Of a stretch of 64,000 nt of DNA, positions 1 to 43,986 are shown in pieces. This DNA is from Cenococcum geophilum (lineage: Eukaryota): assembly GCA_050273025.1 (NCBI GenBank), contig CP158635.1, positions 1,550,001 to 1,614,000 on the forward strand, read 5' to 3'. How positions within the stretch are numbered: the first letter of the stretch is position 1; each line of letters opens with the position of its first letter. The translations under genes were made by a program, and so were the position numbers. The notes beneath the pieces are model-generated. The model had not been told where the DNA came from. It was given only the letters and a program-made list of their open reading frames with translations, and did not search any database.

Positions 1-2550
1 CCCCTGTCGATGCTTTTCCGGCGAACTAGAAGGGAGGCCAGTTTGAGGAGCAGGAGCTTACCGGCCCCTTTTTTGCCCTAACTTTTAAAGATCACTACTA
101 TCTAGATAGATGCTTCCTTAGTTCTTCCGGTAAAACTGAGATATATAACCTCTAGCTTATTAAAAATAACAAGACTGGCATTAGTAGGTGGTATATTAGG
201 TTTAATATTAGCCTAGTTATAAGACGCCTAAGAGTAAAGATGCTATTAACAAATCCTGTTTATATAATTGATGGTAACGGCCGCGAAGTAGTCCTTATAT
301 AGGGATTATCTATAGAAATCTCTGACCTAGTCACTATTGATCTTTAAACGGCTAGTTTCTGGGTATAGCGTCCGATCCTATCGCGTGAGGAAGAAGGTAG
401 TTGGTAAGAAAAAGCCGTAAAATTTACTAAAGAACTTCTAGACTCCCTACTAAGATAGCTCCTTAGTCTTAAGGCTAAGACAAACAAGAACTAAACCAGC
501 AATCTTAGATTTAGAAAAGATAATGCTGTATATATGCAGAAATGGGGATTAGAAAGGAAAGGAAGTCACGTATTAGTTATAAGGGTATAGGAATTAAAGT
601 CTGGAGTTATCTTTGCCGCTAAGGAGCCATACTTAAGGAACTACGACGATAATATAGTAAGAAAGGTGTGGGAAGAATTAAGAGCGGAATATAAGAATAT
701 AATTAAGCTTAGGGAGTATGTAAGTAAACGCCACCGAAACTATGTTGCCGTTAAGTGCTAATTAATTATCCTTTTTCTAGCTAAACTTAGTAAAAGTAAT
801 CGACTTAATATCACTAGAGAATTAGTAGCTACTATGGATGATTATGGAGTGAATTCTATATAGCCTTAACTTAATAAAACCTAACACTTACAATATTCCT
901 AACTTTATGCTTTAGGTCTATAACGGAATAGTTGCTATATATAATAAAGATTTTGCTTATTAGGACCTGAAGCTAGAGAATATCCTTATTAGAGTTAACG
1001 ACGATGGGCTTACTCCTAAGATCGCCAACTTTAGAGAATTGAAATTTAAGGCTTTAGGAAATATAATGACTATTACTAGCTTAGTATTATATATGGCCCC
1101 CAAACTCTATATAATAAACCTACCTTATTTTAAAGCTATTAATATATAGTCCTTTAGACTTATTATATTGGAACTTCTAACTAACTAGGAGCCTAACTTA
1201 GAGATATAGGGCTTCTACGGCCTGCTAAGTCCTAAACAGTATAATAACTGAGTTTATAACGTAATCCCTATTTATATAGCAAGTGCGCTAGAGACGTTTA
1301 GGTCTATATTAAAGGGACTATTATATAAGGAACCTAAGTAGAGATGGTCCGCTAAGGAATGCTAGAAATGGCTGCTAGGAATTGTTTTAATAAATATAAG
1401 CACGTAGAAAGGCACTAATAATAGCAAGAAGCGGCCTGTGTTAGTATCCAAGGACGACGGCTGTAGAAATATATGGAGTTAATACCCTACCTAATTAACA
1501 ATCTCTCTAGAGAGACGCAATCTCTAGGGAATACTTTTTAATACTTTTTATGTATTTAACGTAACTTCCGATGGAGTTTTAAAACTTGAAGGATTAGTAT
1601 ATATTAACAGAATTATCCCCTTACTCCTTATTCTGTGTCTTTATTATTCTAACTATTTTAGCCGCTCTAACTCTAAGTCTACAAAGTCTTTAAAATAGTT
1701 TGACGCTGGTAAAGAGGTTATTAAGCTATATTATGTGCTTTCCTAGAGGATAGAGCCGCTACTAAGTAGTCTTGTGCGTTTATATAAGGCTTAGCGTTAA
1801 TATAATGCTATAAAAGGAAGAGTAGATATAGGATAGCTTACTAAAAGCTACCTATATTACTCCCTAATAACCTTAGTCTTGTAGTTAATCTTAATAGCTA
1901 TATATTGCTTATCTAGCTCCCCTTCCTCATTAATTACATTGTCTTTTACCTAAGTAAAGGCCTAACCTAAGTTTTGGCATACCTCTAGAGTTTTAGGGCG
2001 TATTACTAGTAGGTCTCCCTTATTAAATAATATACAGCCTTATCCTTTACTTTTGTTTATAAAGATTAAAGTTATAAATAAAACCTTATAGGCCTAGATA
2101 GTACTATAGATAGCTAATAACGAGGCCCTCCTTATAGGCTTATGTGATGGAAAACTTAATAAAGAATTATTATAGGAGGAAATTGCTAGACATTTTATAG
2201 GTAGAACACTATAGGAATACAGGCGCTGTTATAAAATTCTAAGGCCTAAGCCTAAAAAGGAGGCTGTAAAGGAGAAACTATGGACAGCTGATAAAGAGAA
2301 ACGCCTCGTGGACATATATAAGGAAAAAGGCATGGCGTGGAATGACCTTAGAAGGTAATTCCCGGGAAGAATGTAACTCTTATATAGGAAGCATTATATA
2401 TATATATTTCCTAAAAAAGGAATAAGGCGGCTAGTAGGACCAGTAATGCTAAAGAAAAGGAGGTAGTAAAGTAGAAAGCAGCGCTAAAGAAAAAGAAGGC
2501 AATAAGGTATAGATAAGTAGCGCTAAATATAAGACCTAATAAGTGTTGCT
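1..2550 (+). pseudogene. RIP-inactivated FHA + Ser/Thr protein kinase + 2 Myb/SANT repeat gene (5' end outside window, 3' end approximate)
   Basis: Manual translation: FHA-like GISRWY (~178-195); RKGSHVLV..FAAKE (554-626). Intron 720-780 (gtaagt..gctaat..tag) restores (H)PNLV..MIMEW. Y*DLKLENIL at 958 (HRDLKPENIL), KIANFR (KIADFG), YMAPKL (YMAPEL), INI*SFR (DIWSFG). Same frame at 2107-2397: *IANNEALL..*EEIARHFIGRT and WTADKEKRLVD..GMAWNDLRR*FPGR..RKHY. Confidence 0.85.
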
Positions 2551-2769
2551 TAACGGCAGGAGTAAGGAATATAAATTGTGGCGGTTGTTCTTGCAGGTTT
2601 TATACTGTTATTAGGTTGGCTTCTAGCTTTAATGTTACATATAAGATAATTAGTGGGATAGTATCAGCTAAAAATAAGACTTTAACTAGAAATAGATTTC
2701 TAAGCAAAAGATCTACTACCTGAAATATAAGAATACGCCTAAGCTATTAGCCCCGTCCCTTTTATATAG

Positions 2770-4246
2770 CAGCTCTGGTCTTCACTTTAGTTACCTCCGT
2801 AGAAGAGTATATCTATTATTTAACTTTAGCGTGCTAGACGCGTTTTTTATAAGACTTAAGGGCATGTTTAGTATTTAAAAGCCCGCTTTTATAAACCTAG
2901 GTAGGTATTTAAGCTACTTTATATTCAAGCCCTAACTTAGTTATTCTTTCCTCTAGAATTTTATAGATCTCCCATTTATTATCTATGGTTATTTTATTAG
3001 CTTTATTATCTTTAGCGCGGAATCTCCGCAAAATAGACTATAAGCAATAGCAATAACGCTAGGCACGATGCTACGGGGTATAATACTTCGCAGTAAGCTC
3101 TAAGTTTAAAACGCCGCCCTAGTTGTCGTCGCCGCTATAATTATATTCGCTTAAGTTGCTAGTTTTATTACGCAGTAGTTTAATATTATAGAGAGAGGTA
3201 GGCCCCTAAAGCAAAGGGTTGGTGGGCCGTATAGTGGATATCGCTTAGTAATCGTTATAATTAACTTAGGAGTATTAAGAGTTAAGGCCGATAGGAGGCC
3301 AGGGGGCTAAGTTTTCGCGAGAGGTAGGCGGCTTTTGTTGTTTCTAGGGTTATAGATTACCGCCCTTACTACCCTTATTATACCCACTGCTATCTTTAGT
3401 AGAATTATTAGAATTATAATTAATAACGCTACTTTACTCTAGCTATTTAAGCTTCCGCTTCTTTAGTATTAAAAGTAATTTACCTCTAACATTTTCTTTC
3501 TTATAATCGCTCTCTTTCCTAGTAAGTAGACTAGCCTAGGGAATAGTTATAATATTAGTTCTCTTAACTAGACCGTTTATTTCATTAATGTTTTTTACTG
3601 TAAGTTTAATATGGTTATACACAGATGCGCTAAAGAGATCTTTAAACTCTTCTAAAGAAGGTAACTTCTTACCCTTATCGTCATTACTACAGTTATTTCT
3701 GTCACCTAATATTTATTAGGCAAAGCCATCGTATAGAGGAGAAGAGCATACCTAATTTATAAGGTGTTAGTTAATCGTCGGCTTTACCAGCTTTATTACT
3801 AGTATTATTATCGGCTCCGTCGCCTTTAGCTTCTAGGTTAAGGTCGGCTATACTATCTTTAATGGCTATTAGATCTACTGCTAGCCGTTAAATATATATG
3901 TTTATGGCTATTAGGAGAATAGGGAGAGAGTAGTAGGGATAATTACCTTAACTGCTTCCTCTAGCGACTTAACTAGATGTATCCCTATAGACATCTTCCT
4001 TATTATCCTTAAAATTTTTGTAATAATTATTTTTGTAATTATGGTTAGGGTCTGCAAGCGCTTTATTAGACGAAATCTCTAGACTAAGGCTTTATGTAGA
4101 ATAATACACCTCTAATTAGCCAAGCTTAATACGCCCTAGGGTTATTTCTTAGAGGGAAAAGGGGTATTTTATACTTTATCTAAGATATACTGCTCGTGCC
4201 TTTCTCGGAAGCTGTAACTATATAATATTAAGGTAAAGCTGTCCAT
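2770..4246 (-). pseudogene. RIP-inactivated ~490-codon gene with C-terminal chromodomain
   Basis: ATG at 4246 is in frame with KWEIYKILEERITKLGLEYKVA*IPT*VYKSGLLNTKHALKSYKKR at ~2977-2840. This matches the chromodomain pattern (W/Y)E(I/V)..IL..R......YxVxW..TW.....L.NA...L..Y after RIP reversal. End approximate. Confidence 0.7.
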
Positions 4247-4482
4247 TTTCCGGAGGGACTAGTATAGAACTTGCTGTTATTAAGCGAAATTTCTAAATAA
4301 AAATAAAGGGGTTAAGAAGGTGCTACTATTGCTGCTGCTATTATTATCGGAGTTATTATTATCTTATGCCTTTCTAATAACTTTAAGGGGGGATTACGCT
4401 AGGCTTTTAAATATAAGCCAGTTTCCTCTTCGCCACTAGCTCTTATCCGCGGCATCTATACTAGAATAACCCTACTAGCTCT

Positions 4483-5279
4483 ATAGCGAATTAAACCGTA
4501 TAATTTACACTCCATTAGTAATTGCCGTTTATAACGTATAAGGGTTTGCACGGGCTTAAGCTTTGTTACAAGATTAACGCCTATTAGGAAACTAGAATTA
4601 AGACCTAACTAACTAAGCTAGTATATTTAGCCTCTAATAGGGGCGTCGCACTAAGCCTCCTTATTGAGAAGGCTGGTGGCGAAGTACCTCCTTTACTCTT
4701 ATTTTTTAGAGTTAGGGCTAGTACTAACGTATCTGTTTTCTAACCCGATTATACTAGTAAACTAGATCTTCTGTACTAGATCCTCTACAAGACTATAGTT
4801 CTAAGCGGTGCCTAATATAGCCCTATGGCCATTTATAGCTATGCTACTAGGGATTAAAGTTATAGGTCGCGGTTATACTTTACGCCACTAAAACCGCCCT
4901 ATATATTAAAAGGCGGTTAGTAATAACACTTAGAGGATTAAGACTAATAGTATTCCTTAAATAAAGATATAATGGTGTGGTCCTACTAGGAGTTTAGCTA
5001 AAATTATATGGAGCAGCGGCTGGCTAAACTAAGCCTTATAAAGCAATACGAGGAGCTAGGGCGCCCGTAAGCGTCTCCGTTACCGTTTTGTGCTATTACT
5101 AACGTGGTAGTAAATGTAGATTTTATAGATAAGCTACTATAGGGTGTCGCCTTAAGTAAAGAATGGTATAGAAACTGGAGTGGCTGCGTAATCTAGCGAG
5201 GCTTCTAGCTGAAAATATATAAATGTACCGACTAATTAATATATATAATAGAGTAACACTAGGACGCCGGATGAGCTAA
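4483..5279 (+). pseudogene. Possible RIP-degraded hypothetical gene with one intron
   Basis: Frame interrupted only by RIP-type TAA/TAG stops; canonical fungal intron 5067-5110 (gtaagc..ctaac..tag); no recognisable domain; start inferred. Confidence 0.35.
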
Positions 5280-5974
5280 GGCGGCTTAAGGATCCTTAAC
5301 ATTAGCCCTTTATAGAATTGTCCCTATAGCACCAATTATAACATCTAACGGTTTGCGCTAATGTAGAGCGGTACCTCTAAGAACTAAAGGGACGATACAG
5401 GTCTAAGTTAAGTTTAGATTACTTAAGAAGAGTAATTTCTAGATAGAAGGGGTTGTTTAGGTAGTTTAGAGACTAGGTTTAAGTGGAGTAAATAGCTACA
5501 AATATACGGAAGGGTTATTTTTAGGCGAGAAGCCTAAAGGCAGTATAAGAGCGTTTATTAAATATCGGAGGATTAAACTATAGGTGTGATATTAGGAGAG
5601 GCCGAAGCATGCTTGCTCTACGCTATTATTAGTATAAGATATAAGATATTAGGAATACGAGGGTAGTGCAGCACTTGCATTAACGCTAAGTTAGTAAAAA
5701 ATGCCTTATAGTAGGGATTGTAATCTAATAAAGGTGGCGTGGCGTTAGGAAGTCTAGGAGAAAAAGGAGAATTAAAAGGTAAAATACAGAGAACGGGGGA
5801 AGGTTATCCTTTTATAGTCGACGTCGGATAAGGATACTGGATTACCGAAAGATTAGCTAAGAAACTTAATTTTCTATAGATATAAGATTTTCCGAGTCCC
5901 GGCTCAGACACCTCCATAACTGGTAGTTAAACCCTCCAGATTTGGAGGGCTCTAAGCCTACTAGATAAAGTTTA

Positions 5975-6105
5975 TAAGTAGAGCTTTATATAGAGCTTCG
6001 TGCAGAGCCTCTGTACGCAGAGCTTTATATAGAGCCTTGTGTAGAACCTTATGCAAAGCTTCGTGTAGAGCTTTGTGTGGAGCTTCATGCAGCGCTTTAT
6101 GCAGT
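5975..6105. repeat. Degenerate 12-bp tandem array (consensus AGAGCTTCGTGC)
   Basis: Units such as agagcttcgtgc and aaagcttcgtgt; reverse complement of the GCACGAAGCTCT array at 19295-19620. Confidence 0.85.
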
Positions 6106-6139
6106 TTTATAGTATTTTTGTTACATTTTTATTGCATTT

Positions 6140-6292
6140 TTATTGCAGCCAAAAATTAGGGTCTGCTTAAGTCGCTTAAGTCACAATTTTAGTAATTTAT
6201 ATAAAGTAGCCTGTAAATCGCTGCAAATCGCCGCAAATTGCTAAAATTGCGACTTAAGCGAGTTAAGCAGACCCTAATTTTCGGCTGTAATA
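6140..6292. repeat. Long inverted repeat / hairpin with ~60-bp arms
   Basis: ttattgcagccaaaaattagggtctgcttaagtcgcttaagtcacaattttagtaattt pairs with aaattgctaaaattgcgacttaagcgagttaagcagaccctaattttcggctgtaataa; mismatches are mostly RIP-type transitions. Confidence 0.9.
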
Positions 6293-6321
6293 ACGCGCCC
6301 AAAATTTTTTTTCCTGATGTA

Positions 6322-9300
6322 GGGGGTAGCCTAATGTATTTAAGTCTTAAGCGGAGGGCTACTAACACGTTAGGCGCTCTATTAAAACGGGCTATTAAGA
6401 TAAAAAAGATTGCTCTATATTATAGTAAGTCTATATAAGAGCACCAAGACTTCTATAATAGCTTAAAGCTAGCATTCCGCCTAGAGTGCGACGGCTTTAT
6501 AGATAAGGATACTAAAGTCGCGTTTACTATATAATATATAAAGGGGACCAACTAAACCCTTTAGCTATAGTATAAAGATAACTATTTAGATACGCAGTTT
6601 ACCTAAGAGGAGCTTATAAAATTCCTACTTAACTAGATTAAAAGTCCTATTAATTAAGAACTCTATATAGCCCTAACCTATATAAAGGTAATATAGCGAA
6701 CTAATTAACTAGTAAATAAGTTTACTGCTTACCTAACCTCCTTAAAAGCGCAAATTAATCCTCCTTATAATATAAAGTATTTAATAATATATCTGTTTGC
6801 GAAGCTGCGGCTAGAGCTATAGGTTGCTATTACCAACTATTAAGAATTCCCTTAAACTTAAGATTAGCTAGTTTCCCTAGCTACCCTATTAGAGGAAAAC
6901 TAGAAAAGCGCAAGCGCCCTATAAGGTAGAAGTAATAGGCGCGCCGTAAACTTAAATATAAAGACTACCTAGTTAGGTAACTTAGGGAAAGCGAACTCTA
7001 AAACTACCGCTAGCAACTTAATGGCGGGGCAAAGCAATACCGCTAGGGGCTTAACTTAGCCTAAAGGAAACTGCTTAAAATATGGGTAGCTAGGATATTG
7101 GTAGCAATAATGTAAAGAGTAGTAATAAAATTAACTACCACCTAGCAGTATAAACGCTACCTTTATACTAGGAAAAGATAAGCGCCCTTAAACCCCCTTA
7201 TAGCCGTAGGGCATAAGCTCCTACTAAATTATAAGGAAGCTATTACTATCTTAGGTAAAGTCCTCCTAAAGAAGACCTGGAAGGAGACCTTAGTAATGCT
7301 TAATATTGGTGCCGAAGTAAATATAGTTAACTAGCAATTTGCTATAGAGTATAACTTTAAAACACTAGATGTAGAGCTGCCTACCTACTCCTAGTTAAAT
7401 AAGACTTAGGTATATTACTATAAGGCCTATAAAGTACTACTAAGAATAAAGGACAGCTAGGGTAAGATTAGGGAAGTAACCCTTATCTGCTATAAAATAG
7501 CTAACATATCCCCTACTATTACCCTAGGTATACTAGGGTTAAAAAAGGCCTAACTTCTTATTAACTATAAGGCGAAGGCGTAGTAATAGAAGCTAGATAG
7601 CTTATCCCCATTACTATAAACCCCTAAGGGTTTCGCGGAGTCTCTCTAGATAGAATTTAGGGTCTTTACCCTATTAACTTCTAGAGTAATACCTAGTAAG
7701 TAAAATAACGGCAGCTTACTAGTCCTCCCCCCGCAGTTAAAGGAAGTTAGTAATATCTTCTCCTATAAGGAAGTAGGAAAGCTACCCTAATACTACTAGG
7801 GCGACTATACTATTGACCTAAAAGAGGGACAGGAGGCCCTATATAGGCCGCTCTATAACCTCTTAGCTAAGGAGCTAAAAGTCCTAAGGGAGTATTTAGA
7901 TAACGCCTTAGCTAAAGGCTAGATCTAACTAAGTACTAGTCCTATAGGGGCACCTATTCTCTTTATACCTAAAAAGGATAGGAAGCTGCGGCTCTATATA
8001 GACTATAAAGGCCTTAACAAGGTAACGATTAAGAATCGTCTCGCACTACTATTAATTAGTAAGACCTTAGACCGCTTAGTAGGTTCTAAAATCTTTACTA
8101 AGCTAGACCTAACGCATGCGTATTACCGCCTTCATATCCATTATGGCGATAAGTAGAAGACGGCGTTCTGTACGCGCTACGGCCACTTTAAGTACTTAGT
8201 TTTGCCTTTTAGGCTAACTAATAGACTAGCAACCTTTTAGGGCTATATTAATCAGGCCTTATTAGGACTAGTAGATGTCTTCTATATAGTCTACCTTAAT
8301 AATATTCTAATTTTCTCTAAAAATCCAGAGGAACATTAGCGCCACGTAGTAGAAGTACTGCGTAGGTTATAATAATACCAACTATATACAAACCTTAAGA
8401 AGTGCAAGTTTAGCGTATAAAAAATTAAGTTCCTAGGATATATTATTAGCCCTAAAGGTATAGTAATAGATCCTAGCCGGGTAGAAGCCATTACTAAGTA
8501 GGAGAGCCCTTAATCCTATAGAGATATCTAGGTCTTCCTAGGTTTTGCTAACTTCTATTATTGGTTTATTTATAAATACTCTACTATTGCAAAGCCTATT
8601 ACTAATCTCCTAAAAGGAGTAAAGAACGGCCGTAAAGCTAGGCCTTTTAATTAGCTAGAGGAGGCGGAGTAGGCAATATACCGGCTCTACAACGCCTTTA
8701 TAACGGCGCCGCTCCTATAATACTACACGCTAAGCCTACTAACTTAGTTAGAGACGGATGCCTTAATATAAGGCCTAGCAGTAATTATATTACAGCTATT
8801 TAAAGACGGCCTTTAGTATCTAATAGCCTTTTAGTCTAGGAAGCTTTTACTAGTAGAGCGTAACTATAAAACCTATAATTAAGAGCTACTAGCTATTATA
8901 GAGGCTTTTAAGCATTAGAGACACTATATTAAGGGGCTATTAAGCCGCCTAGAAGTACTCTTAGATTATAATAATCTAAAGGGTTTTATAAAAGTAAAAG
9001 CCCTTAATAGACGGCAAGCCAGATAGGCTATAACCCTAGCTGCCTATAACTTTATTATTAAGCATGGGTCGGGAAAAACAAACCCCGTAGACGCGTTGTT
9101 AAGGCAACCCCTAGGCGTAGGGGGTTTACTAGAAGAAGACACTATACTACTACTGCTCTAAAGGACTTTAGAAATATAGGGCCACCAACTTAAGGTAAAA
9201 GTCTTATTAGGTATATAGGAAAGCAAGCCTTTTATAAAGGTATCGCTTTTATAGCTATAAGCCGGCGACCTAATAGAGGTACGCCTAGGCAATATAGTAT

Positions 9301-10900
9301 TATGGTTTAACTAGGCAACCTACACGTATACCGTTAAGTAGCGTATAATAAGAACCCAAGTTAGAGTAGTAAGCACTTAAGAGAGTGCCTATAAGTCTAG
9401 TACGGAAATAGTTATTAAGCTTATTAAAGGACTTTAAACTATAGATAACTTTATGCTGTAAAAGTACAGCGACAGCGTAGATACAGCAAGACGCCGTTAA
9501 CGCGCCTACTTAAAGCTAGTGTGGCAGTTTAATTCTAATAGACTACTTTATCACCATGGGAGGCTATATATGCCCCTAGACCTAGCAGTTTATACAGAAC
9601 TCCTATAGATCTACCACAATAATGCCCTAGCTAGGTACTTTAGTAAGAAAAAGACTCTAGATCTACTTACGCGTAAGTACTACTAGCCTAGTATAAATGC
9701 GGACATTATAAGCTATATCTTTACCTATAATCTATGCCAGCGTATATATACGCCTTAATATCGCCCTTATAGCGAGCTCTAAGCGCTACTTTACCTAGAT
9801 TAGCCATAGTAGGAGATTATAATAGACTTTATTATAGGCCTCCCACCTAGCAAATAAGGTAAGAAGGTATATAACGCAATATATATAATAGTTAACCGCT
9901 ATACTAAGATAGCCTTATATCTGCCTATAGTAAAAACTATTACTATAACCGAACTCGCGGATCTCTTCCTTAATAAAGTAGTACGCCGTTTTGGAGCCCC
10001 TAGGGGGATTATATCTAATTAAGGCAGTATCTTCACTAGTAAGTTCTAGTTAGAGCTATGCTTTACTATAAAGATTAAACGTAGGCTAAGTACGGCCTTT
10101 TACCTATAAATAGATAGGTAAATAGAACACCAGAACTAAACCTTAGAGTATTACCTCCGTATATTCTATAATAAAAAGTAGAGTAACTAGGTAGGCCTCT
10201 TATTACTAGCTAAATTCGCCTATAATAATACTAAATATAGCATAATAGGTATAAGCCCATTCTATACCTACTATAGGTTTTACCTACGTCTAGAATATAA
10301 GGTTAAGGCGGATAATAGTAGTTCTATTCTAGCCGCCTCTAAGAGAATTAAAAGAATATCCCTTAAATATAAAGCGCTAATAAAACGCTAGGAGTACGCC
10401 GCTAAGGTATAGGCGAAATACTATAATCGTTATTACTAACTATAGGTATATAAAGTAGGGGATCTAGTCTTGCTATTAACTAAAAACCTTAAACTAAAAA
10501 GGCTAAGTAAGAAACTTATAGCATGCTTTATTAGACCTTTTAGTATAGCTAAACCAGTTAGAAAGTAAGTATACTAACTATATCTACTTACGTCTTACCG
10601 TATCTACCCAGTGTTCTATATTAGCTTGCTAGAGCTATATAAATAATATAAGGGCACTACTAGAGACCCTCTATTAGGGCCTATTAAGCTAGATAATTAA
10701 GAGGACTAAGAGGACTAATATGAGGTAAAAGAAGTATATAGAAGGAAGGGATATAACCAGACCCTATAATACCTAGTTAAGTAAAAAGGCTAGCTAAAAG
10801 AGTATAACAAATGGGTCCTAATAGAGGACATTAATAAGGACGCAAAGGAGACGTATAATAGTTACTTTACCCTAAGGAGTAAATAGAAAAGAAAGTAGGC
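6322..10900 (+). pseudogene. gag-pol relic of gypsy A (protease, RT, RNase H, integrase, chromodomain)
   Basis: NIGAEVN protease (~7302); YGPLYNL (~7842); YLNNILIFS = YLDDILIFS (~8291); ETDA (8751); LSTAF..TDGQ-like (~10086); chromodomain YEVKEV..YLVK*KG (~10720-10820). Confidence 0.9.
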
Positions 10901-11547
10901 GGGAGAATAAAAAACTTTTAATTATAACTAGAATTGCGCCTTACTAGCGGGGCAATAATAGAACGACGGCGGAGTAATAGTAGTACGCTAATAGAAATAT
11001 AGATACTCTATAGCTCTAACAAATCCTCCCTCTTCTCCCCTCCTTCTTCTTCCTCCTCCTCTCCCTCCTTATCCTCCTCCTCCCCCTTCTCCTTATCCTC
11101 CTCCCCCTTATCCTCCTCCTTATCCCTTATAATGGGAGGCATATTAGCCTATAGGTACTATTAGTATACGCTATAACGGCAAAATACCTGCGCTACGATA
11201 CGTACTAAAGCGCGTATTATATTAAGAATTCCTTTAAAAGTATAACGGATGGCTTATAATTCCTACACTTAGAGTAAGGGAAAGTCTTCGCCCTTTAGGT
11301 GTTAGCGGAGACTATACTTAGCGCTAGTACGTACTAAGGCCTTAACATCCTTTGTAAAGGACTTCTGGATGGCAGCAACGCAAGCGTTAAGGTTAGCCGT
11401 ATCTCCACCAGCAACCCACTAGCGCTTAGCCCTATTAATAAGGGTAAGTAGCTTATTTAGGCGGCTATAGAAGGCCTTAGGGACCTAGTCTGTTAGCTAT
11501 TAGAACTTAAACTAACGTACTTAGACTTACTAGTTAGTACGACTTAT

Positions 11548-11972
11548 TATTACGGACGCTTTAAGTACGATATTATAACTACTTGGAGAAGAGACGGAAG
11601 AAGCTAGTTGGTTGATTTAGGCACGGTCTAGGATGGAGCCGATAGAACTATATGACGAGGAATAGTAACCGAGGTCATATAATGTGCTACGTATTAAACG
11701 AGAGGAACAAGAGGAACTTACGTACCTTATGTATAAGACGTACATTACGTATAAGAAGGATTTTATAGGAGTATAGTTGTGTATTTAAGGACCCTTAGTC
11801 CCTACCTAGATAGTTCCTTCCTTATAGTGATTCTTAGAATATAATTAGAGTTAATCTATTAGGCAACCACTTCACCAGTTGTTATTATATTATTAACTTT
11901 TATACTTATATTTCCTACACACCTAGCCTAATAATAAGCCCACCGTAGTTCCTACTATAAGGTTCCGTTATA
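11548..11972 (+). repeat. 5' LTR of gypsy B
   Basis: Direct repeat of 21586-22010; TG..CA ends RIPed to TA..TA. Confidence 0.95.
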
Positions 11973-12016
11973 TAATTACTACCTAGTTATAGTATTAATA
12001 TAAGAAGTCGAACAAT

Positions 12017-15000
12017 ATGCTACTAAAAGCAGCTACTATGACGCCATTAACGGTAGCAACTACATTAAGGTTAGGTAACGACACCAGTATAGCAAACACT
12101 AACTCACAGCAACCTATAACGGTTGGACAATTATAAGAGATAGTTAACTAGTTGACAGAAAATAATATAACGTTAGAAAATAGGATTAATGGGATAGGCG
12201 TAGTAAAGGTTAAGTTACTATTAATCAAAAGATACTTAGGAGAGAGATTAAAGCTTAAAGGATTCCTTATGTAGATGCACTTTAAGGTAGCACAGGAAGG
12301 AGTAAAGCTGGCAACACCTATAGATTAAATAGCCTATGCAGGACTATTCTTAACAGGAAGAGCACTTAAATAGTTTAAGCCTTACCTAATAGAAATCTAG
12401 GTAAACGGGATAATAACTATAAACCAAGAGGTACGGTTTATGTTCTTAAGCTAAAATAGATTCGTTAAGCGACTTATATAAATGTTTGGAGACCCAGAGG
12501 CAGTAACTACGGCAAAAAGAAAAGTCCAAAACATTACGTAACGAACCTTAGTAATTAAGTATATAACATAGTTCCAGACGTTAGTAATATAAGTTAAGTG
12601 AAATAACAGGGCGCTTATAGCATAGTATAAACAGGGACTTAAGGCTAAAGTCTAGGACGTAATTATTCTAATAGAAGATGCGGACACCCTAAGGGAGTTA
12701 ATAGATTAGGCAATTAAGATTAACAATTAGATCTACCAAAGGGAACAGGCCAAGAGAGGTTAGGATAGAATTCTATAGTCGTATAAGGCGTAGAGCACGT
12801 AACGACAAAAGCCAAGTTAAAAACTATAGTATGGCGCAGAGCTAATGGACCTAAGTAGTACTAGAGAAGCCTATAAGAGATAGAGTAAGAAACTATGGAA
12901 ACCTAGAGGACAGGGATTAAGTAATTAAAGGTTTAAGGAGCAGAGGCCAAATTAGGGATCTTAGCAGCAGAAGATATTCAGGCGGACTCCACAGCAAGAA
13001 AAATGGTTTAAAGAAGGAGCTTATATAAATTATAGAAAACAGGGTTATTACGTTAGAGACTATAAAAGTAGGTAGAGTTACTATATAGTAAAAGGTACGA
13101 GACTAGTAGACGATATATACGTATAGAGGAATAATAATATACTGCGAGGAACAAAAGAATGTTTAATTAGAAGTTTTGCATTTTATTACAATAACGTATA
13201 CTAAATTTATAAGGATGCTAAGTACGGCGTAAGCTATTAGCTATAGGAGCTAGCACCTACAGGATACAGAGGAACTAATAAACCAGTTCGCAGATCGGAT
13301 ATTAAGGACGATAAATTTAACGTAGGCGAAATATTTCGTAATAATAAGGAAATAAAAGCAGTTTACTAGGAACACGCAGCTATTGGAGATATTATACTAG
13401 AGGTAAAGGATAATTCTACTACGGAATAGGGAACATTAGTAGGGATTAAGACCCCACTAGATATAATGTCTATCGCTTTACGAGACGTAAAAGAAGTAGG
13501 ATAGTAAACTACTTTAGCACTTAATAAAGGCAAAAGGCCAAAGACTTAAGATTCTTATAATAAGATATAAGACAACTAAGATTCTTAAGACAAGATAAGG
13601 CAAGCTTAAGGACCCACAACGGACAAAAACCGATAGAGTAGAGTAGTAGCTTAGTTTAGTAATATACAAATAAGCTCGGGACGGAGGTTCCCATAAACAC
13701 AAGATTCTTAAGACAAGATAAGTAAGATTTAAGACTCTTAAGATAAGATAAGAATACTAAGTAAGCCTAGTTGAACTAAGGCTAGAGCTAAGCTTAAGTT
13801 AGAAGCAAGCTTAGGATCAAGGATCTAAAGGGGCTAAGAATTTGGAGTATAAATTAGGATACCCATAGATAAAAGGCAAGGAGCTTCTTTATAGATTAGA
13901 GAATCTGCGGCACAAATAGTAACTAAACTAGGAGATAGATACATGGACCTAGAGGACTTACTAATAGAACATAGTATTCAGACTAAAGATTAAAAGGTTA
14001 ATATAAAGATTAAGAAGTAAGAGAACTTTAAGGATTAAAGCGCAAAACGCAAACCAAAGGAAACCATAGAAGAATTTAGATAGAGAATTATCGTATAGCA
14101 AGAACAGAAACTAGATAAGAGATCTAGTATATTAGGACGTATAAGGGATAGAGCGCTAGTATAAAGAATCACTAATAGGCCTAGGGTAGGCACACTAAGA
14201 GCTAAGTGGCTAACTAAACTAGAAGATAAAGAGGATCTAGAAATCCTAACTAGGTTCGAAGAATAACATATAAAGGGCTGTTATAATATAGTAATAAGAA
14301 GATACTTCCTTACGGATAAGCCGTATATACTCTAGCAGCTATACTAAAAGTAGTATAGGCAGAGGCACAATAATAAGTGGGAAGATTTTTATATATGGTT
14401 GGATAAAAGAGTTATCTAAGACCACCCAATTATAGAAAAGGCCATAACACATATTAAAGGAGCCTTAATTATAACGTTAAAGGATCTAAAGGAATAATTA
14501 GAGGACTAGAAAAGTAAGAGGCGTATTTTAGTACCTACGAATAAAGTTATAACGTTTAGATTAGCACAATAAAGGTTTAAACTTAAGGATAAGGATAAGC
14601 TAAGAGTTAACCTAAAGCACCCAGCACACTATACGTTATTATAGATTGCGTACGTAGATAATATATATAAGATGCACAAGAATCCAAAAGAAAAGAATTA
14701 GAAATACCCTATAAGAATATACTAGATAATAGACGAGCGATAGTATAAAAATGCCAAATATATATATAGATAATGGCATCCAGTAGAGGATTAAAAGGAA
14801 GGAAGCTTAGTACTTTAACTAGGAAGATTTCTTATAGAAGAATACTTAGACGGATAATAGTGGTGGGAATACCTAAAGAACATATATCTATAGTATATTA
14901 AAGATAAAAAGCAAACTAGATATTAGCTAAAGAGTAAGCTAAGTGCATAAGGATTAAGCAGCTAATAGTTAGGAAAAGTAGAGGCCTACAGAACTAGAGG

Positions 15001-18000
15001 GAGCTAGTAGTAGAGCCTTAGACCCTTAAAGGAATTTAAGGATAACACCTAAATTTATAAGTTAAATAGTAAGATTAACAGTTTAAAGCGCTAATAGATA
15101 GTGGAGTAACGCGGAACCATATCTTACTAGCAGCAGTTAAGAGAATAGGGCTACTTTATAGATAGAAGGAGTAACCTTACCTATTAATTATAATTTTAGG
15201 AGATCTAATAGCCTACGGAGGAGGGATTATTAATCTTAAAATAGGACCTATTTAGATAACTATTAAAGGAAAATAAATTAAGATGTCTTTTAATATCCTA
15301 CCATTAGGACGAGATGAGGCAGTATTAGGCATACCTTAGTTACAGGAATATAATTTAAAGATTAATTAGATTATAGGTCAAGTTAATATTAAAGATACTT
15401 AATACCGCAAGATGCAATAATAAGCTAAGTTAGTATAGTACTAAGTAGAAGCAACCTATAAAGAAACAAAGAAAGGACTAAGTTATATACTAAAAAGATA
15501 CCATAAGTACGGCAAGAAACTATAGTTACCGGAAAGTAAAAAGCTATTAGAGTATATAGTATAGGACTATAAAATAGAATTAGAACCAGAAATAAGTTTA
15601 AAGTTCTTTCCAATCTATAAGCTTACTAAAGAAAAAGGTAGAGTATTAAAAGAGTTTATCTAAAAAAACTTATAAAAGGGATATATTAGACTATCGCAGT
15701 CATTAGCGGGTTATCCAGTACTGTTTATACTAAAAAAGAATGGTAAACTAAGGCTATATATTAACTATAAACAGTTAAACAGCATTACTAGGAAGGATAG
15801 ATATCCTTTACCCTTAATTAGCAAAATCTAAGATAGGATAGGTAACGCGTAAATCTTTACAAAGATAAATCTAAGATAGGCGTACTATTAGATTAGAATT
15901 AAGAAAGGCAACAAATAAAAGGCAGCCTTTAGGTTAAAGGAAGGACTATATAAACTATTAGTTATACAATTTAGGCTTATAAACGCACTAGCAATGTTTT
16001 AAAAGTGTATTAACAATATATTAGGAGAACACTTAAATAAATTTGTTATAGTATACCTTAACAATATTATTATCTATTTAATAACTAAGGAAGAATATAG
16101 GGAACACATTAAATGGGTCTTAAAGAAACTATAAGAAGAACAGATACTAGTAGCAATTAAGAAATGCGAGTTCTTTACTAGGAAGACCAATTTCGTTAGA
16201 TTTATTATTAAACTAGGCTAACTTAGCATAGATCTAAAAAAGATTAAGGCTATAGTAAATTAGTAAGAACTAGAGAACGTTATATAATTAAGATCGTTTT
16301 TAGGGTTTTATAATTACTGTAGAAGGTTTATAGCACAGTGGTTAAAGGATATTAAGCCATTTACACAATTAATAAAGAAAGAAGAACTATAGGCATAGGG
16401 AGAGGAATAAAGAGAACTCTTTAAAAAAGTTAAGGAGTTGTTTACCTAGGAGCTAGTTCTTAAGATCTATTAACTAGGACTAGAGATAGTTATAGAAACG
16501 GATACATTAGACTATATACTAGGGGTATACTTTATATAGAAATATTAAAATGGATGGCACCTAGTGGTATACTATAGTTAGAAGATAATACTACTAGAGT
16601 TAAACTATAATATCTATAATAAGGAGTTATTAGGTATAGTTACAGTATTAAAGAAATAGAAAGCATTCTTATAAGGTATAGAGAAACTATTTATAGTTAA
16701 GACGGATTATAAAAACCTAATAGGATTCCTAATAATAAAGGAACTTAACTAGAAATAGGTTAGATAGGTAGAGATACTTATAGAATACTATTTTAAAATT
16801 TAGTATACTAAGGGTATAGATAATATACGAGTAGATACTCTAAGTTATAAGGCTAAACTATAGAACGATAAAAAGCCATTAGGAGCTTTACTGCGAAAAG
16901 ACATAGATAGATTAATTAGGTATAATTATCCAAAAATTATAGTAACTTAGGAAGAACTAGAAAGAGTTTATAAGTTACCAGAAAGCTTTTAGGTATAAAG
17001 AATTCTAAAAGTATAGCTAGAAGATCTATAGACGGATATATACAGAAACCAAGAAATAAAGTACATCCTAAAAAGCATAGCAGAGTAGTTTATAGAGGAC
17101 TTCTATAAGGGATTAACTTAAGGACATAATAGAGCTATAGGCTTAGTGTTAAGACTTTAGGAGGAGTATATTATTAACAGAATCTAAAGGATAGCTAGAA
17201 AGGTTACTAAAGAGTATTTAGATTATTAAAGAAATAAACTAATAAGGTATAAGCTATATAAAGGGCTATAACCTGTTAAAACACTAGAGAGACTATAGGA
17301 GGTTATATTATAGGACTTTATTATTAAGTTACTAAAGTTAAGAAATCCTATTACCGGACAAGATTATAACGTAATCTTAGTAATAGTAAATAAGCTTATA
17401 AAGTAGGGATACTTTATAGTATATATAGAAGAAATCTTAGCAGAAGATATTGCTAGAATCTATATTAAAGAAGTGTTTATAAGATATAGAGCACTAAGTA
17501 AAATTATATTAGATAGAGATCTAAGATTCATAGTAGTATTCTAGAAAGTATTTTTAGTGGAGTAAGGAGTTTAAGCAGTAACTTCTACTATATATTATCT
17601 ATAAACAGACAGTTAAACGGAAAGATTAAATTAGACGCTAGAACAATATCTAAGATATTATATTAATTATGCATAGAATAATTAGGTATTACTATTACCA
17701 GTTATATAGTTTATATATAATATAACACCTTAAAAAGAAATAGGCACATTACTATTTAAAGCGAATTATGGATATAAGCTAAGAATATTATTATTACTAT
17801 AGCAAGCAAAGAAAACAAGTAGCATAGCTAAAGAAAAAATAAAGACATTAATAAATCTTTATATAGACCTTATAGAATTAGTAAAGAAAGTATAAGAGAG
17901 AATAAAAAAGTACTATAACGCTAAGAGATCTAAGGAACTAGATCTTAAGGAGGGAGATAAAGTATAGCTACTACACAAAAATTTTAAAAGTTAATAACTA

Positions 18001-18380
18001 AGTAAGAAGTTAGACTACGTTAGACTAGGACCTTTTAAAATTACGCAGAGAATTTTACCAGTTACGTTTAAGTTAAACCTACTAGCTAAAATAAAGATCT
18101 ACCCTATATAATATATTGCAATATTAGAGCTAGTATATAGGAATATTAAGTCACCGGTTTATAAAGTAGATATATATAAAGGATAAAAGGAAGATAAATA
18201 GTAAGTTTTAAAGATCGTTAGTTATAAGGACATTAATAATAAAATATAGTATAAGGTTAAGTGAATAGGCTATACTAAGACTACCTAGGAGCTACTAAAA
18301 AATTTAAAGAATGCTATAAAAAAGGTACAGGAATATTGGAAGAAATTAGGTTAGGCAGTATTAAAAAAAAAGGATTACTA
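12017..18380 (+). pseudogene. gag (long, with CCHC) and pol relic of gypsy B
   Basis: ATG 12017; RIPed CCHC knuckle ~13021-13062; DSGVTRNH protease ~15098; YLNNIIIY RT ~16052; ETD RNase H ~16495; integrase ~17100-17800; chromodomain ~18190-18340. Confidence 0.9.
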
Positions 18381-18867
18381 AAGAATAAGTTACCTAAGGG
18401 GGACCTAGGAAGAGCAGTTGCCGAACTACTTAAATCTATTTCCTTCTCTGTTAGAAGAGAATCCGTTCTTTTATTACTAAGTTCCTATAAACCTTATTCT
18501 ATAAGCTTCTACTCCTTAAAACAAACCTTCTTATAAACCTTTTTAAGATAAAGTAGATAAGCAGACGCCGCGATTTAAGCATTTAGGGCCTTCTGTTCAG
18601 CATTATAAGAATATTTTAACTTCGCAAGGGCTTAAGACAGTTTACTATCTAGCCGCGTAGCAGTAGATTAAACACAAGACCCTAAGATAAATTAATTAGG
18701 GAACTAGACAACTATTAAGAGTAATAGGTCGCGTATATTTAGTATTAGAGGTAGAGCGAACGTCATAGGATAAACAAATATTTGCTTTAGTGTACTCTAA
18801 GTAAGAGGATAGTTATTGTAAAGATGGGTTCGCCAATGTACATTAGCATTTTGTTGGGGTGCCAAGA

Positions 18868-21585: not shown

Positions 21586-22010
21586 TGTTACGGACGCTTT
21601 AAGTACAATATTATAACTACTTAGAGAAGAAACAGAAGAAGCTAGTTGGTTAATTTAGGCACGGTCTAGGATAGAGTTAATAGAACTATATAATGAGGAA
21701 TAGTAACTAAGGTTATATAATATACTACGTATTAAATAAGAGGAACGAGAGGAACTTACGTACCTTATGTATAAGACGTATATTACGTATAAGAAGGATT
21801 TTATAGGAGTACAGTTGTGTATTTAAGGACCCTTAGTCCCTACCTAGATAGTTCCTTCTTTATAGTAATTCTTAGAATATAATTAGAGTTAATCTGTTAG
21901 GTAACCACTCCACCAGTTATTATTACGTTGTTGACTTTTATACTTGCATTTCCTATACACCTAGCCCAATAACAAGCCCACCGTAGTTCCTGCTACAAGG
22001 TTCCGTTACA
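21586..22010 (+). repeat. 3' LTR of gypsy B
   Basis: tgttacgg...ccgttaca, followed by TSD CTTAT. Confidence 0.95.
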
Positions 22011-25700: not shown

Positions 25701-26291
25701 GCGGCAATTTATGGCAACTTACTAGTGCGAAGTTCTACTAAGTTCTGCTAAGTTCTGCTAGTGTAACGGAACCTTATAGTAGGTACTACGATAGGCTCGT
25801 TAATAGGCTAGGTATATAGGTAAAGGAATTAAAGTTAACAAAGTAATAATAACTGGTGGAGTGGTTGCCTAACAGATTAACTCTAATTATATTCTAAAAA
25901 TTACTATAAGGAAGGAACTATCTAGGTAGGGACTAAGGGTCCTTAAATATATAACCGTACTTCTATAAAATCCTTCTTATATATAATATATATCTTATAC
26001 ATAAGGTATATAAGTTCCTCTCGTTTCTCTTATTTAATACGTAGTATATTATATAACCTTAGTTACTATTCCTTGTTACATAGTTCTATTAGCTTTATCC
26101 TAGACCATACCTAAATTAACTAACTAGCTTCTTCTGACTCTTCCCTAAGTAGTTATAATATTGTACTTAAAGCATCCGTAATACTATCTCCCTCCTTTTT
26201 ATCTTTATCCTTAAAGATCCTAAATATCTCTAGGTTGTTTACTAGAGGTATAATATCTATCTAATTAATTTAGTTAATATTATTGCTTATT

Positions 26292-26900
26292 ATACCTAAA
26301 GCAATTTCTTCTTTATACGCCCAACGTTATGCTCGCACTATTGCTATAATATTATCTCTTAGTGAGATTATACCGTCTCTATATTCTCGCTATTTAAAAA
26401 AGGGGTTAGTTTATATTACGTTGGCAAACCTATCTTTATAATAACTATTCTTTTACTTAGAGTACACTAAAGCAAATATTTGTTTATCCTATTACATTTA
26501 CTCTACCTCTAATACTAAATATACGCGACTTATTACTTTTAATAGTTATCTAGTTCCCTAATTAATTAATTTTAGGGTCTTATATTTAATCTGCTACTAC
26601 ATAACTAGATAGTAAACTGTCTTAAGCCCTTGCTAAGTTAAAATATTCTTAGAATACGGAACAGAAGGCCTTAGATACTCGTATCGCGGCATCTACTTAT
26701 TTACTCCATCTTAAGAAGGTTTATAAAAAGGTGCGTTTTAAGAAGTAGAAACTTATAAAATAAGGTCTATAAGAACTTAGTAATAAAAAAACGGATTCTC
26801 TTCTAATAGAAAAGGAAATAAATCCAAGTAGTTTAATAACTGCTCTTCTTAGGTCCCCCTTAAGTAACTTATTCTTTAGCAATCCTTTTTTATTAATACT
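26292..26900 (+). pseudogene. Antisense Zn(II)2Cys6-like gene of gypsy C
   Basis: De-RIPed with copy B: MPKAISS..RARTIAAILSLSEIMPSPCSRC..GLVC..SSCSECTKAN....C; probable intron ~26521-26575; end approximate. Confidence 0.6.
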
Positions 26901-29900
26901 GCCTAACCTAATTTCTTCTAATACTTCTATACCTTTCTTATAGCGTTTTTTAAATTCTCTAGTAGCTCCTAGGTAGTTTTAGTATAGCCTATCCACTTAA
27001 CCTTATACTATATTTTATTATTAACGTCCTTATAACTAATAATCTTTAAAACTTACTATTTATCTTCTTCTTATCCTCTATACGTATCTACCTCATAAAT
27101 TAGTGGCTTAATATTCCTATATACTGGCTCTAGCATTATAATATGTTATATAGGGTAGATCTTTATTTTAGCTAGTAGGTTTAACTTAAATATAACCGGT
27201 AAAATCCTTTACTTAATTTTAAAAGGTCCTAGTCTAACGTAGTCTAATTTCTTGCTTAGTCATTAACTTTTAAAATTTTTGTATAGTAACTATACTTTAT
27301 CTCCCTCCTTAAAATCTGGTCCCTTAGATCTCTTAGCATTATAGTACTTTTTTATTCTCTCTTATACTTTTTTTACTAATTCTATAAGGTCTATATAAAG
27401 ATTTATTAACGTCTTTATTCTCTCTTTAGCTATACTACTTATTCTCTTTACTTCTTATAGTAATAACGATATTCTTGGTTTATACCTATAATTTGCCTTA
27501 AATAGTAATATACCTATTCCTTTTTAAGGTGTTACATTATATGCAAACTATATAACTAGTAATAACAATATCTAATTATTCTATACGTGATTAATATAGT
27601 GTCTTAGATACTACTCTAGTATCTAATTTAATCTTTCTGTTTAACCGTCTGTCTGCGGATAATATATAGTGGAAGTTACTGCTTTAACTCCTTATTCCGC
27701 TAAGAATACCTCTTAAAATACTACTATAAATCTTAGATCTCTATCCGATATAATTTTACTTAGTACTCTATATTTTATAAATACTTCTTTAATATAGATT
27801 TTAGCGACATCTTCCGCTAAGATTTCTTCCATATAGGCTATAAAGTATCCCCACTTTATAAGCTTATCTACTATTACTAAGATTACGTTATAATCTTATC
27901 CGGTAATAGGATCTTTTAACTTTAGTAACTTAATAATAAAGTCCTATAATATAACCTCCTATAGTCTCTCTAGTGCTTTAATAGGTTATAGCCCTCTATA
28001 TAGCTTATGCCTCGTTAGTTTATTCCTTTAGTAATCTAAATATTCCCTTATAACTCTTCGCGCTAGTCCCTAGATTCTATTAATAATATACTTCTCTTAG
28101 AGTCTTAACACTAAGCTTATAGCTCTATTATGTCCTTAAGTTATTCCCTTATAAAAATCCTCTATAAATTACTCTACTATGCTCTTTAGGATATACGTTG
28201 CTTCTCGATTCTTATATATATCCATTTATAGATCTTTTAGCTATGCTTTTAGAATCCTTTATACCTAAAAGCTCTTTAGTATCTCGTAAACTCTATCTAG
28301 TTCTTCTTAAGTTACTATAATTTTTTAGATAATTGTACCTAATTAATCCGTCTATATCTTTTCGCAGTAAAGCCCCTAATAGCTTCTTATTATTCTATAG
28401 TTTAGCTTTTTAACTTAGAGCATCTGCCCTTATATTATCTGTACCCTTAGTATACTAAATCTTAAAATAGTATTTTATAAGCATCTCCGCCTATCTAACC
28501 TATCTTTAATTAAGTTCCTTTATTGTTAGGAATCCTATTAGGTTTTTATAGTCCGTCTTAACTATAAATAGTTTCTCTATACCTTATAAGAATGCTCTCT
28601 ATTCCTTTAGTGCTGTAATTATACCTAATAACTCCTTGTTATAAATGTTATAGTTTAACTCTAGTAGTGTTATCTTTTAACTATAGTATGCTACTAGGTG
28701 CTATCTATTTTAATATTTTTATATAAAGTATACCCCTAGTATATAGTCTAATACATTTATTTTATAACCGTTTTTAGTCCTAGTTAATAGATCTTAAGAA
28801 CTAGCTCCTAGGTAAACAACTCTTTAACTTTCTTAAAGAGTTCCCTTTATTCCTCTTCCTATGCCTATAGTTCTTCTTTCTTTATTAACCGCGTAAATAG
28901 TTTAATATCCTTTAACTACTACGCTATAAACCTTCTATAGTAATTATAAAACCCTAGGAACAATTTTAACTACGTAACGTTTTCTAGTTCCTACTAATTT
29001 ACTATAGCCTCAATCTTCTTTAGATCTATACTAAGTTAGCCTAGTTTAATAATAAATTTAACGAAATCTATCTTCCTAGTAAAGAACTTATATTTCTTAA
29101 TTATTACTAGCATCTATTCTTCCTGTAATCTCTTTAAGACTTATTTAATATATTCCCCGTGTTCTTCCTTAGTTATTAAGTAGATAATAATATTGTTAAA
29201 GTATACCATAATAAATTTATCTAAGTATTCTTCTAATATATTATTAATACGCTTCTAAAACGTTGCTAGTATGTTTATAAGCCCAAATTGCATAACTAAT
29301 AGCTTATATAGTTCTTCCTTTAACCTAAAGGCTGCCTTTTATTTATCGCCTTCCTTAATCCTAATCTAATAGTACGCCTATCTCACATCTATCTTCATAA
29401 AGATTTGTGCGTTGCCTATTCTATCTTAGATTTCGCTAATTAAGGGTAAAGGATACCTATCTTTTCTAGTAATGCTGTTTAACTATTTATAGTTAATACA
29501 CAGTCTTAGTTTACTATTCTTCTTTAGTATAAATAGTACTAGATAACCTGCTAATAACTACAATAGTCTAATATATCCCTTTTATAGATTTTCCTAAATA
29601 AACTCTTTTAATGCTCTACCTTTCTCTTCGGTAAGCTTATAGATTAGAAAGAACTTTAGATTTATTCCTAGTTCTAATTCTATTTTATAGTCCCATACTA
29701 TATACTCTAACAGCTTCTTACTTTTTAGTAACTATAGTTTCTTACCATACTTATAGTATTTCTTTAGTACGTAACTTAGTCCCTTTTTTATTTCTTCGTA
29801 GGTTACTCCTACTTAGTACTATACTAACTTAGCCTATTATTATATCTTATAGCGTTAAGTATCTTTAATATTAACCTGACCTGTAATCTAATTAATCCTT

Positions 29901-32900: not shown

Positions 32901-33211
32901 ATTTAATCTATAGGCGTTAGTAGCTTTGCCCCTTCCTGTAAAACCTTAAAGTATATTTACGTAAGAAATCCTTTAAGTTTTAATCTTTCTTCTAAAAATC
33001 TCTTAATGGATAGTAACTTAACCTTTACTACTCTAATCCCATTAACCCTTTCTTCTAACGCTGCATTGTTAGCTATTAACTAGTTAATTACCTCTTATAA
33101 CTGTCCAACCGTTGTAGGTTACTATAAGTTAGTATCTGCTATACTAGTATCACCTAACCTTAAAGTAGTTGCCGCCGTTAATAGTGTTGTAGTGGCTGCT
33201 TTTAGTGGCAT
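26890..33211 (-). pseudogene. gag-pol relic of gypsy C
   Basis: Collinear with 12017-18380 of element B; ATG at 33211. Confidence 0.9.
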
Positions 33212-42200: not shown

Positions 42201-43986
42201 TACCCTTAGCAAGATCTTAGAAAGGGTAATAGCGGATCGCATAATAGATATGGCTAAGGAACACGCCCTACTACTATAAAGCCAAATAGGGGCAAGAAAG
42301 AACCGCTTAACACTATCAGCACTTACGCTACTCGCTGCTACTATTAAATCTACATGGGCGATGCGAAAGGACTTTATAGTATTGATGCTTAGCCTAGATA
42401 TTAGTAGCGCCTATAATAATATACCCTACGAGCGTCTCTTATACATCCTTAGGGTAAAAGGCTTCCTAGAATAGATTATATAATTTGTTTAAGGGTTTAT
42501 AGGTTAAAAAGAAACATTATTAGTCTTTAGCGGATACTAAATCCCCCCTATTATAGTTGTAACAGGAATACTATAAGGATTACCCCTCTCGCCTATACTC
42601 TTCCTTTTCTTTATAAGCAACCTACTTAACTCCTTTAAAGAAGGGGCGACCTAGGGGATAGGCTTTATTAATAACACAAACCTAATTATATACGGGCCAA
42701 CAGCTATAGAGAATTGTAGAATACTAGAGAAAGCTTATAATACCTATATAAAATAGGCAAGACAATATAGAGTTTAATTCTTACCAGAGAAATACCAGCT
42801 AATCCATTTTATAAGAAAACGCAACCAATTTATAGATCTTTAGCATATAATTCGCATCTAAGGCTTTAGGGGTTAACTAGTTTAGAGCCTAAGAGTATTA
42901 GGAGTATAGGTAGATAGTAAGCTCTAGTAGAGCGTATATGCGGTGCAAGTGGCCTATAAGGGCTAAGTATAGTACATCGTATTATCTAGGATCATCAACT
43001 CTATATAGGGCCCATGCTTCTAAAGGTTACGCCTACTATATACAGCAGTTATCTAGCCAACTATAATATATAGGTCCAGTATTTGGGCCATTAGAGAATC
43101 TAAGAAAGGCCCCCCTAAATCGCTCCTTAAACCACTCTAAAAGGTCTAAATAGCTTACCTCTAGAGTATAATAGGCGGATATAAGCAAACGGCTATAGCA
43201 CTGCTTAAGAAGGAAGCTAATATTCCCCCCCTATAACTATATATTAAAGCTACTACAATATAAAGGGCATAAAAGGAACGCAACTCTAATGTTATAAAGT
43301 ATATTAAGACACGCCTAAATAAACTATAGAGGGACCTTAGGGCGCCTTATAGAAGAATAAACTAATAACCCTAAAGTAGGGAAGATATATTGGAGAAACA
43401 GGTAAAGAAAGCAGAAGAAAAATGGCGCTACTTTAGGGCCTAGGCCCATATAGAGGAGGAAGGGAAATACGTAAGAGGCTAGCAAAGATAATAATAAGAG
43501 AGAGAAAGGAGCTAAAGTAAAGCATAAAAGAACGCCGGGAAACTATCTACTATAATGCAATACTGGCTGGACTAACGCTAGAGAGGCGTATAGGAGTTAA
43601 AGGTATAGAGGCTAACTAAGGCAAGAGGAACCTAAGCCGTAGCATAATTAACGCTATAGGAGGTAAACACTCTAGAGCTCTGAGAAGGCCTAATAAAGGC
43701 AGAAAATATAATAGCAACACTCTTAAGAATAGGAATAATAGGACTAAAAGACTGGCTCTACTAGGTGGGTGTCCTAGTAGGTAGCCTAAGATATAAATAT
43801 AGCTGGCTAAGACAGACACCAAAATATATAATACTATTATGCCCCTTACGCACTAACCAAGAAGTAATACTCTTAGTAGCTGGCATAAAGAACTATAAGA
43901 CACTACTCTTGATACAAAAAGGCCTTAAGGCGGTTACCTAGTAGCTTATTAGCTAAAATGTACTAAACCAGTTCTAGGTTATAAAG

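Follow-up and report, generated by a model that had tools for sequence, protein, structure and literature searches.

Nucleotides (nt) 1–2550 of the analysed 64-kb stretch of Cenococcum geophilum DNA (referred to below, at its full length, as the window) likely carry two neighbouring dead genes on the same strand, one for a protein kinase with an FHA-like N-terminal module and one for a small Myb/SANT protein, within a repeated segment mutated by RIP (repeat-induced point mutation). The original prediction had read both as one protein, in which an FHA-kinase is fused in frame to two Myb/SANT repeats; the fused reading is probably artificial, being created when RIP stops are read through. At its plainest the finding amounts to a commonplace pair of dead genes amid degraded transposons. 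It nevertheless attributes a predicted N-terminal FHA fold, and an intron conserved among its members, to an ascomycete kinase family annotated just as 'kinase'. It also reveals that a member of this family and a small Myb gene jointly underwent amplification and, later, RIP in a Cenococcum-like genome. The features are compiled in Table 1.

RIP is usually diagnosed by a TpA/ApT threshold of 0.89 and a (CpA+TpG)/(ApC+GpT) threshold of 1.03. Across the whole 64-kb window the two indices range from 1.1 to 2.06 and from 0.16 to 1.01, respectively, and are thus of RIP type, at a GC content of 20–44%. The corresponding values for nt 1–2000 are 1.62 and 0.57, which lie on the RIP side of both thresholds. 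Dead transposons are spread over the window, which is a mosaic of such elements. For the C. geophilum genome as a whole, a published account gives a RIP-affected portion of 73% (PMC12910237).

Table 1. Features of the kinase–Myb region and retroelements recognized in the window (positions in nt of the window).
Feature	Position	Strand	Remarks
Exon 1 of the FHA-kinase pseudogene	3..719	+	frame 3; 5' end beyond the window edge; tblastn with P0006
FHA-like beta-sandwich (predicted)	about 60-365	+	approximate; limits transferred from the modelled P0006 N-terminus
Helix after the FHA-like beta-sandwich (predicted)	about 378-440	+	approximate; mapped from the P0006 N-terminus model
Kinase N-lobe	about 550-719	+	FAAKE = VAIK; approximate limits
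Intron, 61 nt	720..780	+	GTAAGT ... CTAAT ... TAG read in the sequence; leads from frame 3 to frame 1
Exon 2, kinase C-lobe	781..1464	+	frame 1; Pfam Pkinase; tblastn with P0006
Conserved C-terminal motif in kinase-family tails (KKRP ... HPT.L..S)	1420..1530	+	last stretch homologous to intact relatives
Linker, 189 codons	1531..2097	+	no homology to intact proteins; Pfam: nothing
Small RIP-mutated Myb/SANT gene	2098..2520	+	frame 1; Myb_DNA-bind_6; ATG mutated to ATA at 2098
Myb repeat 1	about 2107-2238	+	W-spaced
Myb repeat 2	about 2281-2412	+	W-spaced; followed by a basic K/R tail
RIP-mutated Ty3/Gypsy pol	about 7900-10700	+	RVT_1, RNase H, integrase zinc-binding, SH3_Tf2-1
Ty1/Copia element	about 43800-49400	+	RVT_2, retroviral SH3, Pol_BBD

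The read-through translation of 781–2550 was compared by phmmer with 1.84 billion representative proteins, which resulted in 243 hits, the best 150 of which were listed. The closest matches among these best 150, with identities of 68–82%, are short ORFs and themselves RIP-mutated copies. Copies of the kinase part are represented by P0003, P0005 and P0008 (68–77% identity to the window, among the best 150 of 243), the last of which is annotated as 'kinase-like protein, partial [Cenococcum geophilum 1.58]'. A second copy of nt 1–6000 was not detected elsewhere in the 64-kb window by blastn. The nearest intact kinase relative among the best 150 of 243 hits is P0006, a metagenomic protein of 547 residues. 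In tblastn, its residues 48–275 align with window positions 30–716 in frame 3 (39.7% identity) and its residues 292–527 with positions 769–1464 in frame 1 (32.8% identity). As the alignment starts at residue 48 of P0006, the first ~47 codons of the kinase gene are placed outside the window.

The kinase subdomains claimed in the original prediction are indeed recoverable. Frame 1 of 781–1440, with the stops read through, matches Pfam Pkinase (PF00069) with an E-value of 2.3e-14 and 53.8 bits (cutoff 31.7), and the known signature motifs persist as FAAKE (VAIK), YQDLKLENIL (HRDLKPENIL), NFR (DFG) and APK (APE). Among solved structures, Chk2 is nearest to the kinase part by sequence (E 8e-7), followed by CaMK1. 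Because HRD, DFG and APE are all altered and exon 2 (781–1464) contains 12 RIP-type stops in 228 codons, the window copy of the kinase has to be considered inactive. The intron proposed to restore the HPN motif is likewise borne out. Its removal joins frame 3 (..LREY) to frame 1 (LNLVK..) and, allowing for RIP, yields H|PN. Exactly at this site, 8 of 21 aligned relatives contain an insert of 14–22 residues; all eight are ORF-style calls, and none of the nine NCBI gene models in that 21-member alignment carries the insert. The inserts are therefore best read as unspliced copies of a conserved intron.

A word-based search with P0006 provided 107 proteins with lengths between 300 and 958 residues, including 16 further full-length relatives (89–100% coverage, E about 2e-86 or better). 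Nine of the 16 are NCBI gene models of 526–755 residues from nine ascomycete species, belonging to the genera Tolypocladium, Fonsecaea, Cladophialophora, Zasmidium, Trichoderma, Conoideocrella, Metarhizium, Zarea and Karstenula. The kinase family is patchily distributed across Sordariomycetes, Eurotiomycetes and Dothideomycetes. Over the FHA-like module, kinase and tail motif, the window sequence is collinear with intact members such as those of Tolypocladium capitatum (530 aa), Fonsecaea erecta (555 aa), Metarhizium guizhouense (589 aa) and Karstenula rhodostoma (681 aa), which also share the intron site. In contrast to these intact kinases, which lack Myb repeats, the window copy is RIP-killed, cut by the window edge and, as now read, 33–40% identical to them. 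The tail of the family conforms to the consensus KRPA..RRxRSxxPTLSTTR in the alignment of family members, with its window counterpart at about 1431–1530. Beyond nt 1524, the limit reached by P0100, no homology to intact relatives is seen; the kinase tails of some relatives extend up to about 190 residues.

Family members scattered over the three ascomycete classes are 36–49% identical to P0006. Five of the nine named full-length members reside on scaffolds of the <30 kb class (3.9, 28, 29, 30 and 30 kb). The small scaffolds together with the scattered occurrence of the family hint at repeat-rich or accessory genomic locations and possibly at horizontal spread. A metagenome scan with P0006 returned distant kinases only and did not recover the contig of P0006 itself. 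Scans of viral contigs with the alignments of Myb and kinase yielded only irrelevant matches, namely giant-virus kinases.

The assignment of an FHA domain had been regarded as the weakest part of the original prediction. On the sequence level the picture is mixed. The N-terminal translation of the window itself has no match to Pfam FHA, intact relatives score just under the cutoff of 20.7 bits (20.0 and 18.8 bits) and weak Pfam FHA matches are found in six of ten family members; a profile of the N-terminal module run against PDB sequences retrieved no FHA domain, only designed beta proteins. On the fold level the result is clear. For residues 1–190 of P0006, an AlphaFold model calculated from a 10-sequence alignment reached a pLDDT of 87.5 and a pTM of 0.85, and all seven Foldseek matches of this model in the PDB at E <= 0.001 are FHA domains. 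The rows down to rank 50 are also nearly all FHA, comprising engineered and native Rad53 FHA1, MDC1, ArnA, Chk2 and Mek1, with target TM-scores mostly of 0.5–0.69 for single-domain chains. The modelled structure thus supports an FHA fold for the N-terminal module of the kinase family, upstream of the kinase. With this model and with Chk2 and CaMK1 as nearest kinases, both the FHA call, at the level of the fold, and the predicted FHA-plus-kinase architecture stand.

Canonical FHA domains use a phosphate-binding Gly-Arg, a Ser-x-x-His motif and an Asn for the recognition of phospho-threonine. In the family alignment Gly-Ser is invariant, S..H is nearly so and an Asn occurs within LSxN; these are putative counterparts of the canonical elements, with Gly-Ser at the presumed position of Gly-Arg. 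Owing to Gly-Ser in place of Gly-Arg, phospho-threonine binding by the family is not assured.

The domain order of the family corresponds to that of Rad53, Chk2, Dun1 and Mek1, which also combine an N-terminal FHA fold with a following CAMK-like Ser/Thr kinase. The FHA domains of Rad53, Chk2 and Mek1 are among the best fold matches of the N-terminal module, and Chk2 is also the best solved match of the kinase. The supposed likeness to checkpoint kinases holds for this FHA-kinase architecture but does not extend to orthology. Rad53 (Trichomonascus) and Lok-like proteins are 32–41% identical over 18–34% of P0006, and in the kinase part only (E 3.5e-12 to 3.5e-14), whereas true members of the family are covered to 89–100%; the family is therefore not orthologous to Rad53, Chk2, Dun1 or Mek1. 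It further differs from the Rad53/Chk2 type by Pfam FHA scores below the cutoff, by Gly-Ser instead of Gly-Arg and by its patchy distribution.

The Myb/SANT stretch downstream of the kinase is equally recognizable. When TAG is read as Trp, frame 1 of 2101–2550 matches Myb_DNA-bind_6 with an E-value of 4.5e-6 and 27.2 bits (cutoff 22.9), and the intact relative P0013, 52% identical to the window, scores 32.7 and 31.4 bits as Pfam Myb-like; the two W-spaced repeats of the original prediction are accordingly present. Eleven copies of the stretch with 67–82% identity to the window were found, eight of which (P0004, P0255, P0257, P0258, P0007, P0041, P0261 and P0262) share a Met start at the codon that corresponds to window position 2098. 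This start is located three codons before the first Trp and about 570 nt past the last conserved kinase-tail motif. Most of the close copies come from metagenome contigs by ORF-style calling, and their start positions carry an ascertainment bias. P0258, a nearly unmutated copy with all six Trp codons intact, also has its ORF starting at the shared ATG. Several close copies contain Gln where intact relatives have Trp, so these ORFs were evidently called with TAG as Gln, a source of the bias in the start positions.

More distant relatives of the stretch are stand-alone proteins built of repeated Myb units (155–549 aa). Such small fungal tandem Myb/SANT proteins consist of the same kind of repeat unit as the Myb stretch of the window, W..EE..L..L...G..W..I...FPGRT......Y, and differ from it in that the window stretch comprises only two repeats. 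In the protein atlas the stretch met generic Myb clusters only, with scores below 0.9, and cluster look-ups provided no named relative. As a separate observation, the second Myb repeat is missing from a subfamily of copies, P0041, P0261 and P0262, owing to a common deletion of ~190 nt (window about 2281–2476), after which they continue in another frame. Deletion derivatives of this kind occur in repeat families.

The proposal of one protein starts from the frame that the two parts share, and this observation was correct: the kinase C-lobe and the Myb repeats both lie in frame 1, about 630 nt apart. In this interval (1465–2097, 211 codons) frame 1 contains 13 stops, five TAA and eight TAG, without any TGA. 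The statement that only TAA and TAG stops intervene is thus true; yet it is uninformative, as TGA is nearly absent from every frame here, and the type of stop is not diagnostic. Their number is somewhat more favourable to a continuous frame. Frame 1 of 1546–2097 has 10 stops in 184 codons versus 21 and 22 in 183 codons of the other two frames; its stop density equals that of the known coding parts, and so few stops occur in 7.5% of same-size samples of window and frame with similar GC (p about 0.07). Stops are likewise few in the antisense frames of coding parts, which makes this test a weak one. The linker may once have been open in frame 1, and its low stop count may partly derive from a longer disordered kinase tail. 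We consider the shared frame most likely a coincidence, with a chance of 1 in 3. A RIP-aware local alignment of the linker to the tails of homologues was too permissive to tell the frames apart and was dropped. A possible remnant of the C-terminal 'LEDW' of the family near nt 1690 would require non-canonical RIP contexts and was not counted.

A single pre-RIP ORF for FHA-kinase, linker and Myb, with the kinase tethered to DNA or chromatin, and a lineage-specific or spliced join included, would account for the common frame and the sparse stops of the linker and would agree with the long kinase tails of some relatives, but is unlikely in the light of the homologues. A local scan of 153 proteins, namely the best 150 of 243 hits plus two translations of the window and a cluster member, found a kinase match in 126, a Myb match in 27 and both in none; a fused relative would match both parts and rank high, and its absence counts against fusion. 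Correspondingly, a Myb Pfam family is listed in none of the 107 proteins of the P0006 search, the 16 full-length relatives included, and the length range covered by this search would include a fused form. A search for longer proteins with the Myb alignment likewise revealed no fused form, which is weak evidence, and nothing was found in the literature on a Myb domain fused to an FHA-kinase in fungi. The limit of homology at nt 1524 and the conserved ATG of the Myb copies near the first Trp point in the same direction. P0003, another RIP-mutated copy, is the sole match to the linker among the best 150 of 243 hits and reaches only up to nt 1788; the linker probably combines the last part of the kinase tail with 3' UTR and intergenic sequence. 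An ORF spanning kinase and Myb is thus found in no intact homologue among the best 150 of 243 hits or the 107 proteins, and a DNA- or chromatin-tethered checkpoint-like kinase, as conceived from the sequence, is not supported. Besides the stop count of the linker, a further result counts against the reading as two genes: the kinase and Myb copies have diverged from the window to a similar extent, as expected under joint duplication. The same result argues against a further explanation, in which the kinase and the Myb stretch belong to different repeats that happen to abut, for example with Myb as a Starship edge gene or a Harbinger-like part and the kinase outside of it. In a published work, a MYB/SANT gene is described as a conserved edge gene in a subset of Starship giant transposons, and a parallel is drawn to Harbinger transposons, which need a Myb-like protein (PMC12256816). 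On the basis of this literature, a relation of the window Myb gene to the Starship-edge genes is a candidate one; nothing was found in the literature that links Starships with an FHA domain and a protein kinase. Abutting repeats would fit the mosaic of dead elements in the window and also the eleven Myb copies versus three close kinase copies, numbers which derive from non-comparable searches. However, a captain (DUF3435) or DDE transposase domain was detected neither in six frames of 1–12000 nor in selected stretches elsewhere, RIP lowering the sensitivity of this search, and terminal repeats were not found around the kinase–Myb region; an element might also reach past the window edge. We therefore regard abutting repeats as improbable, too.

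The two-gene reading leads to the following scenario. The first gene belongs to an ascomycete family of about 530–750 residues, whose members combine a divergent FHA-fold with a Ser/Thr kinase of CAMK/Chk2-like type and a disordered tail and whose genes share one intron. The second would encode a small protein that stands alone, starts at its own ATG and consists of two Myb/SANT repeats followed by a basic tail. Several RIP-mutated copies of both stretches occur in Cenococcum-like genomes; they thus lie in duplicated DNA, which made them targets of RIP. RIP killed both genes, and neither is functional here. Judged from the domain content, the kinase presumably bound a phospho-threonine partner via its FHA domain and phosphorylated its targets before inactivation, and the Myb protein presumably bound DNA.

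The further claim that the region was carried by a mobile element is plausible insofar as both stretches are multi-copy and RIP-mutated, but neither element ends nor a transposase were found in the stretches scanned. Tentatively, and with considerable doubt, the FHA-kinase and the Myb gene might have constituted a module of two genes in an as yet undescribed mobile element, present in multiple copies in Cenococcum-like fungi, for instance a Myb-bearing Starship end; in the boldest version of this idea the module would be one fused DNA-tethered kinase. If the pair were a unit of a mobile element, it would be a cargo or accessory module of an uncommon kind that deserves description, and such an element would have carried both a kinase for phospho-signalling and a DNA-binding protein of its own.

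Outside the kinase–Myb region, the window contains the two retroelements listed in Table 1 and several repeats. Pfam searches in six frames of 2551–6000 and in four other stop-poor stretches gave no match. A repeat of roughly 420 nt with an LTR-like look recurs at 11550–11970, 21588–22008, 25764–26186 and 33256–33678. Larger duplications are a 7.3-kb inverted pair (11556–18840 and 26417–33670, 85% identity) and a 4.2-kb direct pair (38760–42955 and 59802–64000, 87% identity); no Pfam domains were detected in the scanned stretches of both pairs. The segment 18900–21900 consists of GC-richer (0.43) short tandem repeats, which are open in several frames on both strands (GRQA/GRQV and LYTK runs) and match no Pfam family. 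The Ty1/Copia element is far less RIP-mutated than its surroundings, with a GC content of 0.40–0.44, a TpA/ApT of 1.1–1.3 and open pieces of <=141 residues, and may be a recent insertion.
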